Positions 3,092 to 15,501 of a DNA stretch of 16,788 bases are shown in pieces (within the stretch, counting starts at the first letter, position 1; each line of letters starts with the position of its first letter). The notes under the pieces were generated by a model. That model ran no database searches. It saw only the letters and a list, made by a program, of their open reading frames with translations, and had not been told where the DNA came from. The stretch is from a virus. Lineage: Duplodnaviria > Heunggongvirae > Uroviricota > Caudoviricetes. The DNA is taken from the IMG/VR virus record IMGVR_UViG_2667528074_000009; one strand, 5' to 3'. The translations under genes were made by a program, and so were the position numbers.

Positions 3092-3577
3092 TTAGTTTTG
3101 CTGTTCTATTTTAAGCTTGATAGTTTCATACAAAACAATAGTTGCGCCTGTTTTACATAATTCCCGGCTGTCATACGCACGAGACCAATAACACAACCAG
3201 TTCTCGAGATCTTCTCGAGTATAGGTTTTGCAGGCCAGTCCCTCTGCCATTTCCACGATTTCATCGCCTGGTGCTGTTAACTCATAGCCATTCAACAACA
3301 AGAAGACGTAACCAGCCATCATAGCTGTTCGTTTGTTCGCATTAGCAAACGGATGATTCTGAATCAGACTTTCAATCAATACCGATGCCAGTACAAACAT
3401 GTCATTGATCTGTTCATACCATCGAACCATGCTGGGACGGGCCTGAGAAGAACTTAAGTTATCTGGACTCAGAACACCAACGGGCTCATCTGGCGTCTGT
3501 AATTCAATTAGGGAACGATTGATTTCAACAAGATCATCAACCGTAAGGTAATGCACACCTTCAACAATCTCAGCCAT
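3092..3577 (-). CDS. doc: Doc/Fic-family toxin (death-on-curing-like), 161 aa
   Basis: Contains HPFANANKRTAM, matching the Doc variant of the Fic motif (P1 Doc has HIFNDANKRTAL). Preceded 20 nt upstream by a small antitoxin-sized gene. Confidence 0.8.
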   Translation of the reverse strand: MAEIVEGVHYLTVDDLVEINRSLIELQTPDEPVGVLSPDNLSSSQARPSMVRWYEQINDMFVLASVLIESLIQNHPFANANKRTAMMAGYVFLLLNGYELTAPGDEIVEMAEGLACKTYTREDLENWLCYWSRAYDSRELCKTGATIVLYETIKLKIEQQN

Positions 3578-3597
3578 GGAGTACAGCCCCCCATCTA

Positions 3598-3777
3598 TTA
3601 CACTTTAGAGAGGTCTTCCATGGCTTTCTCATAACGAGAAAAACCGAAATCAAAAGCATTTTTCACTTGTTCACGATGTGCGCAGTTTTCATCAATCGCT
3701 GGGCGAGGGACTGCCACAACGCTTTTATCGCGAGGCGGAATACTCAACCGCGTGTGTTTTTTGAGTGGGCAGCTCAT
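3598..3777 (-). CDS. Putative antitoxin cognate to the Doc-family toxin (59 aa)
   Basis: ATG at 3777 with AAGGA RBS about 9 nt upstream (MSCPLKKHTRLSIPPRDKSVVAVPRPAIDE...). Stop TAA 3600..3598 is 20 nt before the toxin start. Family not recognised (not Phd-like by eye). Confidence 0.55.
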   Translation of the reverse strand: MSCPLKKHTRLSIPPRDKSVVAVPRPAIDENCAHREQVKNAFDFGFSRYEKAMEDLSKV

Positions 3778-3903
3778 ACTAATGAGTCCTTTTGTTTTCC
3801 GATTATTGGCAAAGCCATGCACCAAATTTGATGCAAAATAGATCTGTTTGAGATCCTTAGGATAGTCTAATGGTAGCTAAAATTACAACCTCATAATGCG
3901 ACG

Positions 3904-3928
3904 AAAAACCCGCCGAAGCGGGTTAAGT
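3904..3928. terminator. Intrinsic terminator hairpin; copy 2 of the 21-bp direct repeat; likely 3' end of the hok mRNA
   Basis: AAAAACCCGCCGAAGCGGGTT at 3904-3924, identical to 3055-3075. Lies about 70 nt downstream of the hok stop on the minus strand. Confidence 0.55.
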
Positions 3929-3992
3929 GCGGGTGCGTTGAGGATGCCTGACACATCAGAGGTGGCGAGGGATTTCTCCCCCGCCGGGTCTC

Positions 3993-4148
3993 TTACTCCT
4001 CAGGTTCGTAAGCTGTGAAGACAGCGACCTCCGTCTGGCCGGTTCGGATTCGTACCTCGCAGAGGTCTTTCCTCGTTACCAGTGCCGTCACTATGACGGT
4101 TAAACAGATGACGATCAGGGCGATTAACATCGCCTTTTGCTGCTTCAT
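3993..4148 (-). CDS. hokD: Hok/Gef-family type I toxin (HokD/RelF-like), 51 aa
   Basis: Translation MKQQKAMLIALIVICLTVIVTALVTRKDLCEVRIRTGQTEVAVFTAYEPEE matches the HokD/RelF sequence as I recall it. GGAG RBS upstream of ATG 4148; stop TAA 3995..3993. Missing from the ORF track because it is under 60 aa. Confidence 0.9.
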   Translation of the reverse strand: MKQQKAMLIALIVICLTVIVTALVTRKDLCEVRIRTGQTEVAVFTAYEPEE

Positions 4149-4206
4149 AGCCTGCTTCTCCTTGACCTTTCGGTCCGTAAGAGGCTAACCTATGTTTGTG
4201 TGGCAT
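4000..4206 (-). CDS. mok: mok-like overlapping reading frame (68 codons)
   Basis: A 68-codon ORF starts upstream of hok and overlaps it almost entirely in another frame, the arrangement of mok in hok/mok/sok loci. Coding status inferred from position only. Confidence 0.45.
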   Translation of the reverse strand: MPHKHRLASYGPKGQGEAGYEAAKGDVNRPDRHLFNRHSDGTGNEERPLRGTNPNRPDGGRCLHSLRT

Positions 4207-4260
4207 AGATTGGGCCTCAGATTAATGTTAAGCGTCCTGCAAGACGCGTAATGTTAACTG
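4185..4260 (+). ncRNA. sok: Possible Sok-like antisense RNA (approximate, unverified)
   Basis: In hok/mok/sok loci Sok is antisense to the mok translation-initiation region, which here is around 4200. A TTGACC -35-like hexamer lies at 4162-4167 and an imperfect hairpin at 4233-4248. Boundaries are guesses. Confidence 0.2.
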
Positions 4261-4486
4261 GGGCTTTTCTCTGTCTGCCTTACAGTGGCATGCCCGAGGC
4301 AGACAGCCTCAAGCACCCGCAGCAATCTTACCGACACCGATAAGAAAACGCTATTTTTTATTGCCAGCACCATCTATCCAGGCTAATTTATCTGCGTCAG
4401 AACGGCGCAATGCGCTCGCCTGAGATACGTTTACTTGTCATTGGTAACAACAGATAACGGCAATTGTTGTTTCTGTTTTGTTTCCT

Positions 4487-4520
4487 TCAAAAACCCCGGA
4501 CCATCAAGCCGGGGTTTTTG
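4487..4520. terminator. Bidirectional intrinsic terminator
   Basis: CAAAAA-CCCCGG-accatcaag-CCGGGG-TTTTT; perfect 6-bp GC stem with A-run on one side and T-run on the other. Ends the minus-strand operon 4525-5758. Confidence 0.7.
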
Positions 4521-4524
4521 TTTG

Positions 4525-4608
4525 TTATCCCCAGCGGCAAATCGAATACACCATCAGCGCCACCGCCATCGCAATTCCTACCGTTGTGAATGCTTCAGGC
4601 CAGGTCAT
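4525..4608 (-). CDS. Small hydrophobic peptide (27 aa), translationally coupled to the upstream gene
   Basis: MTWPEAFTTVGIAMAVALMVYSICRWG; its ATG overlaps the upstream TGA (ATGA at 4605-4608); followed directly by the terminator. One predicted transmembrane helix. Absent from the ORF track. Confidence 0.4.
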   Translation of the reverse strand: MTWPEAFTTVGIAMAVALMVYSICRWG

Positions 4609-5168
4609 CGCAAAACATCCTCCGCACTTATCAGTTCGTTCCGCTTCAGGTAGTCCATCGCCTTATCCGGCAATTTACAGTCCGGCTTCACTTTCTTCAG
4701 TTGACTGACCAATTGCTTAACCAGCATGGTTAATTCGTCAGTCTGTTTGCCTGGTACTGGTGGATTGTCGGTTGTACCATGACTGGCAGTACAGTTGGCA
4801 CTTCCTCCCTTCTCCTCCCGCAGCGGTTCAGGCAACGCATCCAGTGAAGCTTTCACAAACCACGCTGCCTGTACTATAACGCCATGAATCCAGCGCAAAT
4901 CAGCATCGCGATCGTTCTTTTTCATCTTTTCACCACTTAAAGCCTGGCTTATGTGGCTGCGAACCAGGTCTTCATGTAACTCCTTCGCATCCTCAATGGT
5001 GAAACCACCAGGCAGGCGAGCCGGAGTTACCGGAGAGTTGCCAGCCTTACGCATGGCCATTTCCACGATTTCAACCATATCTCCTGGTGGAATTTTACAA
5101 AGTTGCCCAATACATTTCTGCTGCCTGGCATATTCGAGAATGTGTTCCAGTTTGGTTCGATTAATCAT
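4605..5168 (-). CDS. Hypothetical phage protein (187 aa)
   Basis: Clean ORF with ATG start; its ATG overlaps the upstream stop (TAATG at 5166-5170). No family recognised. Confidence 0.55.
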   Translation of the reverse strand: MINRTKLEHILEYARQQKCIGQLCKIPPGDMVEIVEMAMRKAGNSPVTPARLPGGFTIEDAKELHEDLVRSHISQALSGEKMKKNDRDADLRWIHGVIVQAAWFVKASLDALPEPLREEKGGSANCTASHGTTDNPPVPGKQTDELTMLVKQLVSQLKKVKPDCKLPDKAMDYLKRNELISAEDVLR

Positions 5169-5758
5169 TATTTATCTCCCTTAAGCATGGCGGCGCGGCA
5201 GGCGTTCCAGCCATCAGCATATGTTTCAGTTACACCGTCGAGATGGCAGGTAAGCAAATCCATTTCATCCGGCACTATCAGTACCGGCTGGACGGTGACA
5301 TTGGCAAAGGCTGCACGCAACCCGGCCTTAATTTCCTCTACCTCATCAGCACCTGGCGATGAATCTGACAGTGCATGATGGAATGCGTAAGCCATGTCGT
5401 CGCTTACTGCTATCGGCTCTGCTTCCAGTGATACCAGTGCAATCTGCGCCCTGACCCACGCCACCCGCGCCGGATTCACATGGCACATGTTGTTCCCTTT
5501 TTCTTCATAGTAATGCCCTTTACTCTCGTTAAATGGCAACACCTCATTCAGCCCGGCACTTCTGAAATCAGCGTGTAATTGTTCCAGTGCCGCTTCGCTG
5601 GAGGCACCGATTGATGTGAGATAATCGAAAAGATTGGCGCATAAACCATAATTTCGAGAAAACACCCCACCTGGTTTCGCCCCATTACTCAGCCACAAAT
5701 CATAAGCAATATAAAACCCGTAAAGCTGTTGTCTGATATTTTCTTTGATGTCTTGCAT
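5168..5758 (-). CDS. Hypothetical phage protein (196 aa)
   Basis: ATG at 5758 just downstream of a short hairpin; acidic protein; no family recognised. First gene of a three-gene coupled unit. Confidence 0.55.
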   Translation of the reverse strand: MQDIKENIRQQLYGFYIAYDLWLSNGAKPGGVFSRNYGLCANLFDYLTSIGASSEAALEQLHADFRSAGLNEVLPFNESKGHYYEEKGNNMCHVNPARVAWVRAQIALVSLEAEPIAVSDDMAYAFHHALSDSSPGADEVEEIKAGLRAAFANVTVQPVLIVPDEMDLLTCHLDGVTETYADGWNACRAAMLKGDK

Positions 5759-5767
5759 TATTTATTA

Positions 5768-5783
5768 CCGCCCTTTCGGGCGG
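5768..5783. promoter_or_regulatory. Short GC hairpin between two minus-strand genes
   Basis: CCGCCC-tttc-GGGCGG, a perfect 6-bp stem, with no T-run on the minus strand, so probably not a full terminator. Confidence 0.3.
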
Positions 5784-5850
5784 CCTCCCGATGTTTTGAG
5801 GGTGCAGAAATCCCTCCGGTTAAGGATTATATTTTCAATAATAATGTTGA

Positions 5851-6207
5851 TTATTCTGGGCTAAGTTTTGTCGCCCTGCGTATTCGCGCTTTCACATTAC
5901 GCTCAATCTGAATTAGCTTTTCTATATTTTTACGTCTTTCCCGTTCCTCCTGACGCAATTGTTTTACATCATCTGCCAGTCTGGTTTCTCTTTTCGCCAC
6001 AGAGAGCATCCAGTCAAATGGCTCCACAACTGCACCGCAGATTTTACAACGGACATGACGCTCTTTTTCATCAACCCTGACAGAGGCGTGATGGCAATAT
6101 GGTTTTTCCGATGGCTCATAAAGAAAATTAACCTGATTACGTGGGTCATCCTCTTTTACCGGAAATAAAACAATATTACTTAACTCATCTTCTGGTTTTA
6201 TTTCCAC
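5851..6207 (-). CDS. Hypothetical protein with zinc-ribbon-like motif and basic C-terminal helix (about 118 aa)
   Basis: GTG start at 6207 with GGAGGGAGG RBS at 5-nt spacing embedded in the upstream gene's last codons; CHHASVRVDEKERHVRCKICG motif; C-terminal K/R/E-rich helix. The longer ORF-track start would overlap the upstream gene by about 75 nt. Confidence 0.5.
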   Translation of the reverse strand: MEIKPEDELSNIVLFPVKEDDPRNQVNFLYEPSEKPYCHHASVRVDEKERHVRCKICGAVVEPFDWMLSVAKRETRLADDVKQLRQEERERRKNIEKLIQIERNVKARIRRATKLSPE

Positions 6208-6208
6208 G

Positions 6209-6538
6209 TTACCTCCCTCCGATACGAATACCTGCAACACGCAGTGCATGCTCCAAATCAGCCAGATAAAGCCAGCGCCCATGCTCTTTGGGCATCATGA
6301 CATATTGCTCATCGGCATTTATCGGATGACCCCTTCGAAGGTCATAGCAAGTCGGTAAATGCACTGCCCTTGCTTCCAGCTCTGCAATGCGTTTATCTCT
6401 GGCTTCCAGTTCGTCCAGTAACGCCAGCACAACCTGCGGTGTGACTTTCATGCGAAACGCCAGCAGTTTCTGAGGTGTGGACACTGTTTTTATTGCCTCT
6501 GCCACATCACGCAACGCCTGGTTGTTAATCTGATTCAC
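6209..6538 (-). CDS. Hypothetical phage protein, possibly Ead/Ea22-like (109 aa)
   Basis: N-terminal QALRDVAEA followed by a coiled-coil LLDELEARDKRIAELEAR segment, resembling Ead/Ea22-like prophage proteins from memory. GTG start overlaps the upstream stop (GTGA). Confidence 0.45.
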   Translation of the reverse strand: MNQINNQALRDVAEAIKTVSTPQKLLAFRMKVTPQVVLALLDELEARDKRIAELEARAVHLPTCYDLRRGHPINADEQYVMMPKEHGRWLYLADLEHALRVAGIRIGGR

Positions 6539-10295: not shown

Positions 10296-10321
10296 AACTA
10301 CTCCTTAGTAAACACAGCAAA

Positions 10322-10389
10322 GAATACCTACAGGTAAACAAAAGTCAATACCCGTGGGTTGTTTACCTTGTGGTAATCGCCTCTATTAT
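10322..10389. promoter_or_regulatory. OR-like operator/promoter region: three TACC-N4-GGTA half-palindromes with divergent promoters
   Basis: Sites TACCTACAGGTA (10326-10337), TACCCGTGGGTT (10350-10361), TACCTTGTGGTA (10365-10376). Leftward promoter candidate: -35 TTGACT (complement of 10344-10349), -10 TATTCT (complement of 10322-10327). Rightward candidate: -35 TTGTTT (10360-10365), -10 TATTAT (10384-10389). Confidence 0.55.
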
Positions 10390-13041: not shown

Positions 13042-15501
13042 ATGCGCACTGATAAAGAAGAATTTGCATTATATTGTGAAGCAAAAAATGACAAAGTCAG
13101 AAAACGCCTTGGAATTAAAGGTGGTTTTTACTGGACTACAGCAAAAAAATTATCTGTTGCCATCTCCCGCTGCATTACCGCAATGGATGACAACGATTAT
13201 GATGAAGACGACTTTAAAAAACCCGTCCGCGTCCATTTACCCGTTGTGAATGACCTTCCACCTGAAGGCGTGTTTGATACTGAATTCTGTAACCGTTACG
13301 AAAAAGGCGGGGAAGATGGCATCACAATGGTATTTATCGCGCCCTCACCCTCTGCGCAGGACAAACCAGCCAACACTGACAATACCAACGTCAACGGCGA
13401 AGACATGACTGAGATTGAGGAGAACATGCTCCTGCCGGTTTCAGGTCAGATTCTGCCTGTTCGATGGCTGGCACAGCACGGCAGCAAAAAACCGATCACA
13501 CACGTTTCGCGGGACGAACTGCGCGCATTACATAACGCACAGGATGAAAAACTTCCCGCCGTTACCGCGCTGGCTATCTCAAATAAAGCAGCGCAACTCG
13601 AACCGCTGGAGATTCGCGATCTCCACAAACTGGTGCGAGACACTGACAAAGTTTTCCCCGCCCCCGTAAATTCGGACCTGGGACTGATAACCTCTTTTAT
13701 CGAAGCATACCTGGACGCCGACTACACCGATCGCGGTCTGCTGACAAAAGAGTGGATGAAAGGAAATCGTGTTTCGCGTATCACCCGTACGGCTTCCGGT
13801 GCAAATGCCGGTGGCGGGAACAAAACCGATCGCAATCCGAATTTAGTACACACCTTCGATACGCTGGATGTGGAGATTGCAGCAGCCACACTTCCGATGG
13901 ATTTTAATATTTATGAAATTCCGGGCAGCGTTTATCGTCGCGCAAAAGACATCGTCCTGAAAAGAGAAAGTCCGTTCAAAGAATGGTCCGCAGCACTTCG
14001 CGCAACCCCGGGTATTCTTGACTATTCCCGCGCCGCTATTTTTGCACTTATCCGGAGCGCCCACCCTGAGTTTTATCACTACCCGGGACGCCTTCAGGGG
14101 TATATCAACGCCCACTTAACGGAGACTGATCACGAGAACCCCAGCAAGGAAACTCTCGCTGCTGCACGACATACACCGGAAAAGGATATCCTGGAAGAAG
14201 TTAACCGCGAACTGGCTGCTGAACGCGAAACAGAAGAAGAAAAAAATAATGAGGAAAAATCACAACCGTCTGACGCAATGGCAGATGAACAGGCAACGAC
14301 TACTGAAGCAATGGGACAGGATACAACTGAACATCGCCAGGACACACAATCGCTGGATACTCAGGCACAGATAAATCCGGTTAATCAGGTAAAAGTTACC
14401 GCTGTCGAAGTAAACAAAATTATGCAGGCAGCCAATATCAACCAGCCTGATGCCGACAAAATACTGGCAGTCCATCGCGGTGAGTTCGTTGACGGAATTA
14501 GCGACCCGAATGATCCGAAATGGGTTAAGGGGATTGAAACCCGCGATTCTGTGAACCAGAACCAGCCCGAATCGGAACAAAACGACCAGAAAGCGGAACA
14601 AAACAGCCCAAATGCGTTACAAAACGAGCCAGAAACGAAACAGCCTGAACCAGAAGAGCAACAAGAACCGGAAAAAGTCTGCACCGCCTGCGGTCAGACC
14701 GGCAGCGGCAACTGTCCTGACTGTGGCGCGGTGATGGGCAACGCAACATACCAGGAAACATTCGATGAAAAAAATCAGGCTGAAGTTCAGGAAGATGATC
14801 CGGAGGAAATGGAAGGCGCTGAACATCCGAACAATGAGAATGCTGGTAACGATCAGCATCACACCAGCGATAGTGAAACTGGCGAGGCGGCAGATCCCTT
14901 AATTGCGGTGAACGGTCATCACGTTATCACATCCACCAGCAGAGTGTGGATTCACCTGTCGGTCGACCTTGAAACGATGGGAACAAATCCTGATGCGCCA
15001 ATCAACTCTATTGGCGGTAAATTTTTTGATCCGGCAACCGGAGAGATGGGGCCTGAATTCAGTAAAGCTATCGATCTGGAAACCTCCGGCGGAATCATCG
15101 ACCGTAAAACAATAAAGTGGTGGGCGAAACGATCACGCGAAGCACAATCCGCTATTTTTACCGATGAAATCTCGTTAGATGTTGCTCTCCGGCTATTCAT
15201 AGAATTTATCGAAAAAAACTCCGGCGGGTGTTTTGTCCAGGTATGGGGAAATGGAGCCAACTTCGACAACGTAATTTTACGCCGTTCATATGAACGGCAG
15301 GGGATCCCCTGCCCATGGCTTTACTACAACGATCGCGATGTACGCACAATCGTTGAACTGGGTAATGCCATTGGCTTTGATGTCAGAATGGCTATTCCAT
15401 TCGAAGGCGTACCCCACAATGCGCTGGACGATGCCCGTCACCAGGCAAAACAAGTTTCAGCAATCTGGCAAAGACTGATCCCGCGTCAGGCTGATTTTTA
15501 A
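13042..15501 (+). CDS. Large early-left-operon protein (819 aa) with C-terminal DEDDh-type 3'-5' exonuclease domain, acidic low-complexity linker and CxxC-N9-CxxC zinc ribbon
   Basis: C-terminal motifs VDLETMG (Exo I), WGNGANFDNVIL (Exo II) and HNALDDARHQA (Exo III); central region about aa 380-620 is rich in E/D/Q/N/T; CTACGQTGSGNCPDCG around aa 545-560; GAGG RBS 8 nt upstream. Occupies the slot of ydfE (truncated in K-12 Qin). Confidence 0.75.
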   Translation: MRTDKEEFALYCEAKNDKVRKRLGIKGGFYWTTAKKLSVAISRCITAMDDNDYDEDDFKKPVRVHLPVVNDLPPEGVFDTEFCNRYEKGGEDGITMVFIAPSPSAQDKPANTDNTNVNGEDMTEIEENMLLPVSGQILPVRWLAQHGSKKPITHVSRDELRALHNAQDEKLPAVTALAISNKAAQLEPLEIRDLHKLVRDTDKVFPAPVNSDLGLITSFIEAYLDADYTDRGLLTKEWMKGNRVSRITRTASGANAGGGNKTDRNPNLVHTFDTLDVEIAAATLPMDFNIYEIPGSVYRRAKDIVLKRESPFKEWSAALRATPGILDYSRAAIFALIRSAHPEFYHYPGRLQGYINAHLTETDHENPSKETLAAARHTPEKDILEEVNRELAAERETEEEKNNEEKSQPSDAMADEQATTTEAMGQDTTEHRQDTQSLDTQAQINPVNQVKVTAVEVNKIMQAANINQPDADKILAVHRGEFVDGISDPNDPKWVKGIETRDSVNQNQPESEQNDQKAEQNSPNALQNEPETKQPEPEEQQEPEKVCTACGQTGSGNCPDCGAVMGNATYQETFDEKNQAEVQEDDPEEMEGAEHPNNENAGNDQHHTSDSETGEAADPLIAVNGHHVITSTSRVWIHLSVDLETMGTNPDAPINSIGGKFFDPATGEMGPEFSKAIDLETSGGIIDRKTIKWWAKRSREAQSAIFTDEISLDVALRLFIEFIEKNSGGCFVQVWGNGANFDNVILRRSYERQGIPCPWLYYNDRDVRTIVELGNAIGFDVRMAIPFEGVPHNALDDARHQAKQVSAIWQRLIPRQADF

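Follow-up and report, generated by a model that had tools for sequence, protein, structure and literature searches.

Described Systems and the Studied Locus

Three groups of described systems are closest to the locus considered here, which comprises three genes at positions 4525–5758 of the minus strand of the IMG/VR virus record IMGVR_UViG_2667528074_000009. The whole stretch analysed, referred to below as the window, has a length of 16,788 nucleotides (nt), and the three genes are designated g1, g2, and pep27. The first group is represented by the Ea22/EaA/DUF551 mosaic proteins, such as lambda Ea22, P22 EaA, HK022 gp35–37, 933W L0139/L0140, and E. coli YfdS. Mosaicism of the ea22 genes and portability of DUF551 have already been published (PMC10834534, PMC7093339). 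Ea22 itself favours lysogeny (PMC7093339); this phenotype is not transferable to the modules of g1 and g2. The second group is formed by small bacterial membrane regulators (KdpF, AcrZ, MgtS, CydX, and PmrR), which are shorter than 50 amino acids (aa), have one helix with small-xxx-small motifs, and are encoded by operon-end genes with translational overlap that are missed by annotation. The third group includes the Hok/Sok-type systems, whose toxins are small inner-membrane peptides of prophage accessory regions.

The g1 (5168–5758, minus strand, 196 aa) and g2 (4605–5168, minus strand, 187 aa) translations share modules, designated B, C, and D below, with the first group and match the portable-domain mosaic behaviour published for ea22, but lack the Ead_Ea22 and DUF551 Pfam domains. 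In addition, the genes of the Ea22/EaA proteins are located between exo and xis in the pL operon, whereas the block studied here follows the replication genes within the pR operon. The third gene, pep27 (4525–4608, minus strand), encodes a predicted single-pass membrane peptide of 27 aa, MTWPEAFTTVGIAMAVALMVYSICRWG, which resembles the small membrane regulators in all the features listed above; because of its small size, it has been missed by annotation. Unlike them, pep27 is phage-borne, its upstream gene is soluble and variable, and no obvious membrane-complex partner is encoded nearby. The KdpF model TIGR02115 aligns with 12 residues of pep27 at 16.4 bits (E 0.0068), and since the curated cut-off is 26.85, pep27 is not a member of this family. 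The Hok/Sok-type systems are similar to pep27 in size, membrane location, and prophage accessory setting, and are adjacent to it in 44% of contexts. However, there is no sequence similarity between them, pep27 has neither an antisense RNA nor a mok-like leader, and it would be driven by the phage early operon as a mosaic cassette of its own.

The coding-strand TAATG at 5166–5170 (CATTA on the plus strand) joins the g1 stop with the g2 start, and ATGA at 4605–4608 (TCAT on the plus strand) joins the g2 stop with the pep27 start. The three open reading frames (ORFs) and both overlaps given in the initial annotation of this DNA coincide with our reading and translation of the sequence. The best explanation of the locus, to which we assign a probability of about 0.6, is that it represents the distal end of the pR operon of a Rac/Qin-like prophage, in which g1 and g2 are chimeras and pep27 is a separate membrane-peptide cassette.

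Comparative Evidence for pep27

The pep27 sample consisted of 80 viral loci fetched with the C-terminal module of g2 (module E) as the sole bait and 120 loci found with a degenerate pattern of the first seven codons. The pooled loci gave 96 unique contexts of 184 nt, and 72 alleles were used for estimating the ratio of nonsynonymous to synonymous differences per site (pN/pS). The 27-codon ORF is intact in 92 of the 96 contexts, and the remaining four carry two stop-loss extensions, one in-frame deletion of two codons, and one frameshift. The pN/pS value is 0.24 in frame versus 1.05 and 1.49 in the shifted frames; for codons 8–27, which were not constrained by the search pattern, it is 0.30. 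Divergence of the alleles at synonymous sites reaches ~20%. The stop codon is either TAA or TGA, and its position is fixed. Judging by this comparative evidence, and not by the window alone, the 27-aa ORF is more than a chance ORF: it is a genuine protein-coding gene under purifying selection.

The translation signals are also conserved. A GGAGG or AGGAG sequence is located 7–11 nt 5' of the pep27 ATG in 86 of the 96 contexts, even behind unrelated upstream genes. In the window, the GGAGG Shine–Dalgarno sequence (4619–4623, minus strand) lies 10 nt before the ATG, within the 3'-terminal codons of g2. The overlap between the ATG and the stop codon of the preceding gene is retained by each of the 72 intact alleles. 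Thus, the initial annotation, which treated the 27-aa ORF as a real gene, is supported by the frame-specific selection, the conserved ribosome-binding site, and the constant length.

When the borders of homology are considered, pep27 behaves as a separate unit. For most of the 80 loci with module E, BLAST alignments with the window extend precisely to the pep27 stop codon; where another gene follows module E, they extend only as far as the g2 stop codon. The alignments of Stx2 phage II and phage TH18 with the window start at the pep27 ATG. At least four unrelated protein tails precede pep27: ...EDVLR of module E (~62%), ...PPQEVNQ of DUF551 proteins (~18%), ...NIEQEVNR of a coiled coil (~11%), and ...KKKGMNQ of module B. 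In turn, module E is followed by genes other than pep27 in 16 of 80 loci (~20%). Apparently, pep27 is a self-contained cassette that comprises an embedded Shine–Dalgarno sequence, an ATGA overlap, and 27 codons.

The gene is widespread. It was found in 1,309 of 5,426 complete E. coli genomes (~24%), with up to five copies in each, and it is present without annotation in the Shiga-toxin phages 933W, VT1-Sakai, and VT2-Sakai. Diverged members with ~60–67% amino acid identity retain the same length, for example, MNWPEAFTAVGVAIAVAFILYSLFRWG in VT1-Sakai and MSWPDAIVTLGMVFAAAFVVYSICRWG in PhiR12_1. The copy in Shigella phage POCJ13 has a nonsense mutation. In 30 of 30 sampled RefSeq records, the pep27 match overlies only the feature of the upstream gene or no feature at all, while a few GenBank submissions name the exact sequence ‘bacteriophage protein’ or ‘hypothetical protein’. 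The initial annotation had anticipated that such a short ORF would escape gene callers, and no feature for it was indeed present in the inspected RefSeq records of E. coli and phages. Neither the peptide sequence nor hokW/933W gave any match in the literature search.

Three other interpretations of this short region were considered and rejected. The first is an RNA element: a search of 4525–4608 with Rfam at a permissive threshold revealed nothing credible, and folding of the coding region showed no excess of structure (z +1.15 and +0.30). The second is a programmed frameshift that would fuse pep27 as a membrane anchor to the upstream protein; a slippery heptamer is lacking, and the upstream sequence varies from context to context. 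The third is a fusion with a 121-aa DUF551 protein, which was suggested by a joint cluster at 90% identity. Four 121-aa members were read, and none of them contains the peptide, so this looks like a clustering artefact.

The Terminator and the hok/sok Locus

Downstream of pep27, an intrinsic terminator hairpin active in both directions is predicted at ~4488–4520, with an A-tract, a GC stem, and a U-tract. Its folding energies on the minus and plus strands are -21.6 and -19.4 kcal/mol, respectively (z -4.6 and -4.2); 0 or only 2 of 200 shuffled sequences fold equally well, and on either strand the stem is followed by a U-run. The pattern-based terminator scanner did not pick up this hairpin, whereas folding did. 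The hairpin lies in a rare 200-bp segment (4325–4524), which separates pep27 from hok/sok and is present in only 30 of 5,426 complete E. coli genomes. For this reason, the terminator of the window is, by its distribution, a lineage-specific insertion between pep27 and hok/sok. The strong bidirectional terminator described in the initial annotation is therefore real on both strands as a hairpin, but it belongs to this rare insert. Most relatives are devoid of the segment, and transcription of the early operon would continue there directly into hok/sok.

The hok/sok type I toxin–antitoxin locus occupies 3993–4318 on the minus strand; the Rfam sok model matches 4146–4318 (109 bits), and the Hok ORF (51 aa) is located at 3993–4148. 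A mok-like ORF of 68 aa (4000–4206) overlaps the Hok ORF, and the counterpart of the locus in 933W is hokW/sokW. Just 3' of hok, at 3903–3984 on the minus strand, the model of the Hfq-binding small RNA isrK matches below threshold (26.4 bits versus the gathering threshold of 50, E 0.004).

The proximity of the two loci raises the possibility that pep27 modulates or neutralises Hok, or that its DNA is conserved as an upstream control region of hok. The pep27 stop codon is immediately adjacent to the hok promoter and the mRNA 5' end in 42 of 96 unique contexts (44%), the order in 933W is L0139, unannotated pep27, and then sokW/mokW/hokW, and the products of both loci are small inner-membrane peptides. 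However, more than half of the contexts (56%) are without hok and end at assorted hairpins and terminators, and in the window itself the 200-bp insert with its terminator stands between pep27 and hok/sok. Selection acts on the amino acid sequence of pep27 and not on its DNA. In addition, the pep27 stop codon coincides with the border of the homology blocks, which indicates that pep27 and hok/sok are separate cassettes, and the Rfam sok model does not reach pep27. Since most contexts contain no hok, a link with Hok is possible but not required, and we consider it unlikely as an explanation of pep27.

Features and Proposed Role of the pep27 Peptide

The pep27 peptide is hydrophobic, with a grand average of hydropathy (GRAVY) of 1.0. 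It has one hydrophobic stretch of 17 residues (residues 7–23, mean Kyte–Doolittle value 1.97), in agreement with the single membrane helix predicted in the initial annotation. One acidic residue is located on the N-terminal side and one basic residue on the C-terminal side, and the helix contains the small-xxx-small pairs G11/A15 and A13/A17. Conservation is almost complete at the two interface ends, namely W3, P4, E5, A6, and F7 at one of them and Y21, S22, C24, R25, W26, and G27 at the other.

Most likely, pep27 acts as a single-pass inner-membrane modulator. It would be made early after induction or infection from the pR transcript and translated by coupling or re-initiation from whichever gene precedes it. 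According to the predicted topology, the N-terminus with its acidic MTWPEAF would be on the outer side of the inner membrane and the C-terminus with its RWG on the inner side, and the peptide may bind a membrane protein via its conserved interface ends and small-xxx-small face. It would then act like the small bacterial membrane regulators and not like a non-specific pore former. A specific partner is preferred over a pore because the ends of the peptide are conserved and it has no amphipathic or cationic character. Since it makes no difference to pep27 which protein is encoded upstream, it would be unlikely to form a fixed complex with g1 or g2.

It could also be supposed that pep27 is a type I-like membrane-damaging toxin that depolarises the host for the phage. 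The size and hydrophobicity of pep27 are within the range of DinQ, TisB, and ShoB, and the gene adjoins a Hok toxin locus. Nevertheless, Rfam reveals no antisense RNA family over pep27, the only one nearby being sok at 4146–4318, and no model of Hok or another toxin matches the peptide, while the Hok models do match the ORF at 3993–4148. With one acidic and one basic residue, pep27 is neither amphipathic nor cationic, and the high conservation of both its interface ends suggests a specific partner. On these grounds, a toxin of this kind is improbable, and a membrane modulator remains the preferred interpretation of pep27.

Mosaic Structure of g1 and g2

For g1 as well as for g2, the homology searches yielded over 1,000 relatives. 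Among the matches listed, almost all are from E. coli and Shigella, and nearly all are named ‘hypothetical’ or ‘DUF551 domain-containing’. Local BLAST alignments of the listed homologues have sharply defined borders, and these borders, at ~aa 106 of g1 and at ~aa 42 and 110/123 of g2, were taken as the limits of the modules. Five modules were distinguished in this way: A (g1 aa 1–106, nt 5441–5758), B (g1 aa ~107–196, nt 5171–5440), C (g2 aa 1–42, nt 5043–5168), D (g2 aa 43–123, nt 4800–5042), and E (g2 aa 124–187, nt 4608–4799).

These modules occur in other proteins in other orders, frequently together with DUF551 or Ea22 domains. Single proteins with the arrangements A+E (210 aa), A+B+E (263 aa), B+D+E (274–285 aa), and C+DUF551 (121 aa) were found, and ORF12 of Stx phage P13374 consists of a B-like module, module D, and DUF551. 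Module B is similar to the N-terminal portion of DUF551 proteins, and its identity to genes annotated as ‘EaA’ is 52–65%. Module C corresponds to the N-terminus of Shigella DUF551 proteins and of HK022 gp35, the record of which contains the note ‘homolog of P22 EaA C-term half’; it is 88% identical to the corresponding region in HK022, VT1-Sakai, and phage 2851. Module D is 91% identical to aa 146–212 of P13374 ORF12, and the same segment is annotated as ‘Ea22’ in PhiR5_1. Module E is the commonest tail preceding pep27. The motif GN(S/Y)PVTP recurs at module joints, namely at aa 42–49 of g2 (~5022–5045), at aa 217–224 of P13374 ORF12, and in the 121-aa DUF551 proteins of Shigella; apparently, it serves as a linker where module genes recombine. 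Thereby, g1 and g2 belong to the informal pool of Ea22/EaA mosaic modules, sharing high-identity modules B, C, and D with Ea22/EaA/DUF551 proteins. Coverage of a 1.5-kb test stretch (4400–5900) reaches 80% in only two of 5,426 complete E. coli genomes. As the alignments indicate, g1 and g2 are chimeras of five portable ‘ea’ modules associated with Ea22, EaA, and DUF551, and not a conserved pair.

The statement of the initial annotation that the two larger genes belong to no recognised family is borne out. In a Pfam scan, g1 and g2 had no match at E<=1; the Ead/Ea22 domain (PF13935) and the 68-residue DUF551 domain (PF04448; YfdS, Ea22_V2) are absent from them, whereas relatives sharing modules B, C, or D do carry the DUF551 domain. 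No NCBIfam or PADLOC family was found for either protein, and profile searches of the Protein Data Bank (PDB) with g1, g2, and module A matched no solved structure. A scan of g1, g2, and pep27 against PHROGs gave only PHROGs of unknown function and sub-threshold matches. The initial annotation had allowed for membership in well-known nin-region families, and Pfam and NCBIfam revealed no match of g1, g2, or pep27 to those of lambda (NinB, NinG/Rap, NinH, RusA, etc.) that exceeded any cut-off. The g1 protein is acidic, with a net charge of -13, and has no membrane helix. By prediction, g1 and g2 are soluble, helical members of the Ea22/EaA pool.

The sequences of g1 and g2 are also informative with respect to their integrity. 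The g2 gene and its 90.6%-identical copy differ with pS 0.244 and pN 0.041 (pN/pS ~0.17), while a pN/pS of ~0.6, calculated on only 16 differences, was obtained for g1 and the copy in E. coli strain C5. In this strain, the Prokaryotic Genome Annotation Pipeline (PGAP) splits the 98%-identical g1/g2 copy (NZ_CP010122.1, 6085–6959) into three pseudogene fragments marked ‘incomplete’, although neither reading frame is interrupted there or in the window. Given the intact frames in C5 and the pN of g2, which is much lower than its pS, g1 and g2 look like functional chimeras. The pseudogene call appears to be an artefact of comparison with differently assembled mosaic relatives.

A Probable Early-Right Transcription Unit

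A pR-like promoter (TTGACT-16-TATTCT) was found at 10321–10348 on the minus strand. It probably drives the entire minus-strand early operon through pep27. The terminator scan revealed no strong minus-strand terminator between this promoter and position 4520. The 92-nt gap 5' of g1 (5759–5850, minus strand) contains a GC-rich GNRA hairpin, and no sigma-70 promoter was detected on its coding strand. Since the pR-like promoter is at 10348, no strong terminator precedes position 4520, and no promoter was detected before g1, we infer from these scans that g1, g2, and pep27 form the tail of an early-right transcription unit of ~5.8 kb and not an autonomous operon. The stand-alone three-gene operon proposed in the initial annotation is not consistent with this organisation.

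The initial annotation went further and suggested that tight coupling of the three genes implies a fixed stoichiometry. According to this suggestion, g1, g2, and pep27 would constitute a dedicated three-component accessory system, such as a toxin with partners, superinfection exclusion, or host takeover, with coupling setting the ratio of the products. In favour of it, the TAATG and ATGA overlaps do exist, none of the three ORFs is interrupted, and module E is the commonest partner of pep27 (~62% of contexts). A soluble-plus-membrane complex of acidic g1 with membrane-embedded pep27 is conceivable. However, overlaps of both types are commonplace in phage early operons, and the trio occurs together in only two of the 5,426 genomes. 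There is free recombination among the modules of g1 and g2, which in many cases make up single proteins in a different order, and pep27 and module E are each found with other neighbours, as described above. Moreover, no PADLOC-DB defence-system model matches g1, g2, or pep27 at E<=0.1. A fixed three-gene system is thus quite improbable, and the assumption of fixed stoichiometry is contradicted by the reshuffling.

The least probable explanation is that g1 and g2 are non-functional recombination debris, as PGAP implies for C5, and the 27-aa ORF is a chance frame in recently spread DNA; although the PGAP call, the rare arrangement, the low-confidence structure models, and the g1 ratio based on 16 differences are compatible with it, both ORFs are uninterrupted in C5 as well as in the window, g2 shows a low pN/pS, and pep27 keeps its length and its frame-specific selection despite synonymous divergence of up to ~20%, as do its diverged members with respect to length.

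Several points weigh against the interpretation of the locus as the end of a pR operon with chimeric g1/g2 and a separate membrane-peptide cassette. The pairwise pN/pS values ignore phylogeny. The pep27 sequence is absent from the supplements of two published ribosome-profiling papers on enterohaemorrhagic E. coli; it should be taken into account that early genes of prophages are repressed in lysogens. The structure prediction proposed in the initial annotation for the two larger proteins gave AlphaFold2 models, built from shallow alignments dominated by E. coli, that are helical and of low confidence (predicted local distance difference test (pLDDT) values of 58 for g1 and 51 for g2), and a Foldseek search of the PDB with these models gave nothing at E<0.001. 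The mechanism of a membrane modulator is pure inference. Finally, the adjacency of hok/sok in 44% of contexts could mean a functional link outside this explanation.

Prophage Context of the Locus

Pfam and Rfam annotation of the window corresponds to a Rac/Qin-like lambdoid prophage. On the plus strand, it encodes an integrase (15763 onward, Pfam) and a recE-like exonuclease VIII (13042–15501, Pfam); the 819-aa product of the latter contains an N-terminal region of exonuclease VIII (RecE) and a C-terminal Rv2179c-like 3'-5' exoribonuclease domain. The immunity region is located at ~10.3–11.3 kb. The early operon on the minus strand has the following order of genes: YdaS-like, YdaT-like, HTH_36 replication-type, DUF1627, DUF977, DUF4406, an ORF without assignment, Ead/Ea22-like, and zinc-ribbon. 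Then come g1, g2, pep27, the terminator, hok/sok, Fic/DOC, DUF968, and antiterminator Q.

The Ead/Ea22-like ORF (6209–6538, minus strand), two genes upstream of g1, has a GTG start and matches PF13935 with an E-value of 6.6e-10. Between it and g1 lies the zinc-ribbon ORF (5851–6282, minus strand). As listed, the two ORFs overlap by 74 nt. The true start of the zinc-ribbon ORF is probably an internal codon near the stop of the upstream Ead/Ea22-like ORF. On the other side of hok/sok, the region 3092–3825 contains an ORF of the Fic/DOC family (161 aa), preceded by a 75-aa ORF with no family match. These two could be a Doc/Phd-like toxin–antitoxin pair.

A Possible Wider Family of MTWPEAF Peptides

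A search of the whole viral collection was performed with a pattern of MTWPEAF plus a pyrimidine constraint, which excludes the E. coli pep27 family. It revealed nine viral sites, while a codon-permuted control gave 0. Four of the six distinct viral matches are ORFs of 29–35 aa with a hydrophobic stretch after the motif, and a broader pattern added two peptides of 27 and 30 aa in contigs L173 and L201 (the motif in L201 being MTWAEAF). Altogether, peptides with the motif and a helix are encoded in unrelated, mostly high-GC viral contigs (L095/L163/L206, L123/L208, L135, L173, and L201) and in the bacterial genome L311. In the viral contigs, the helix is followed by basic residues, and in most cases the start overlaps a long upstream ORF as ATGA. 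The L123 and L208 peptide genes differ by 8 nt, of which six are at third codon positions, and the 150 nt upstream of them are unrelated; apparently, this pair repeats the cassette behaviour of E. coli pep27. The same pattern applied to 596 Gb of bacterial genomes gave ~39 distinct matches, and a helix follows the motif in one of them, versus four of six in viruses (Fisher p = 5e-4).

It may tentatively be suggested that pep27 is the enterobacterial member of a cross-phylum phage family of 27–35 aa peptides with an almost invariant N-terminal MTWPEAF and a single membrane helix, which would be encoded in an exchangeable cassette joined via ATGA to the final gene of an early module and directed at a conserved inner-membrane target, although we regard this as doubtful. 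Because the sample is small, the wider family should be treated as a lead and not as a result.

Module A as a Phage Domain Family

When module A was searched alone, an exhaustive search of representatives gave 668 cluster representatives at 50% identity. These relatives are mostly stand-alone proteins of ~100 aa with invariant W22, C40, P75, F76, and R98, and they occur in both virulent and temperate phages. Large virulent coliphages (~150 kb), such as phAPEC8, have module A in 2–4 places per genome, and a match in three stretches was found in gp339 of Burkholderia phage BcepSaruman. A Pfam scan of 77 members and a PDB profile search both gave no match; the profile search aimed at homologues with names yielded only ‘hypothetical’ proteins, and the 668 representatives are without annotation. 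The neighbourhoods of two distant members are short contigs of small genes of unknown function. Thus, module A represents a large phage domain family without a Pfam model.

Significance

By their alignments, g1 and g2 are new combinations of known mosaic modules, and the module map obtained for them indicates that chimeric genes with intact frames are erroneously called pseudogenes by annotation pipelines. The exo-xis/ea region is known to influence the lysis–lysogeny decision and hence the release of Shiga toxin. In turn, pep27 is a widespread overlooked gene of a predicted small membrane protein, present in ~24% of complete E. coli genomes and in reference Shiga-toxin phages. It is a tractable candidate for a phage small membrane protein that would be expected early in induction and is encoded beside the hokW maintenance toxin, within the exo-xis/ea region. 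If the cross-phylum MTWPEAF family is true, its peptides would act on a conserved target in the bacterial inner membrane.

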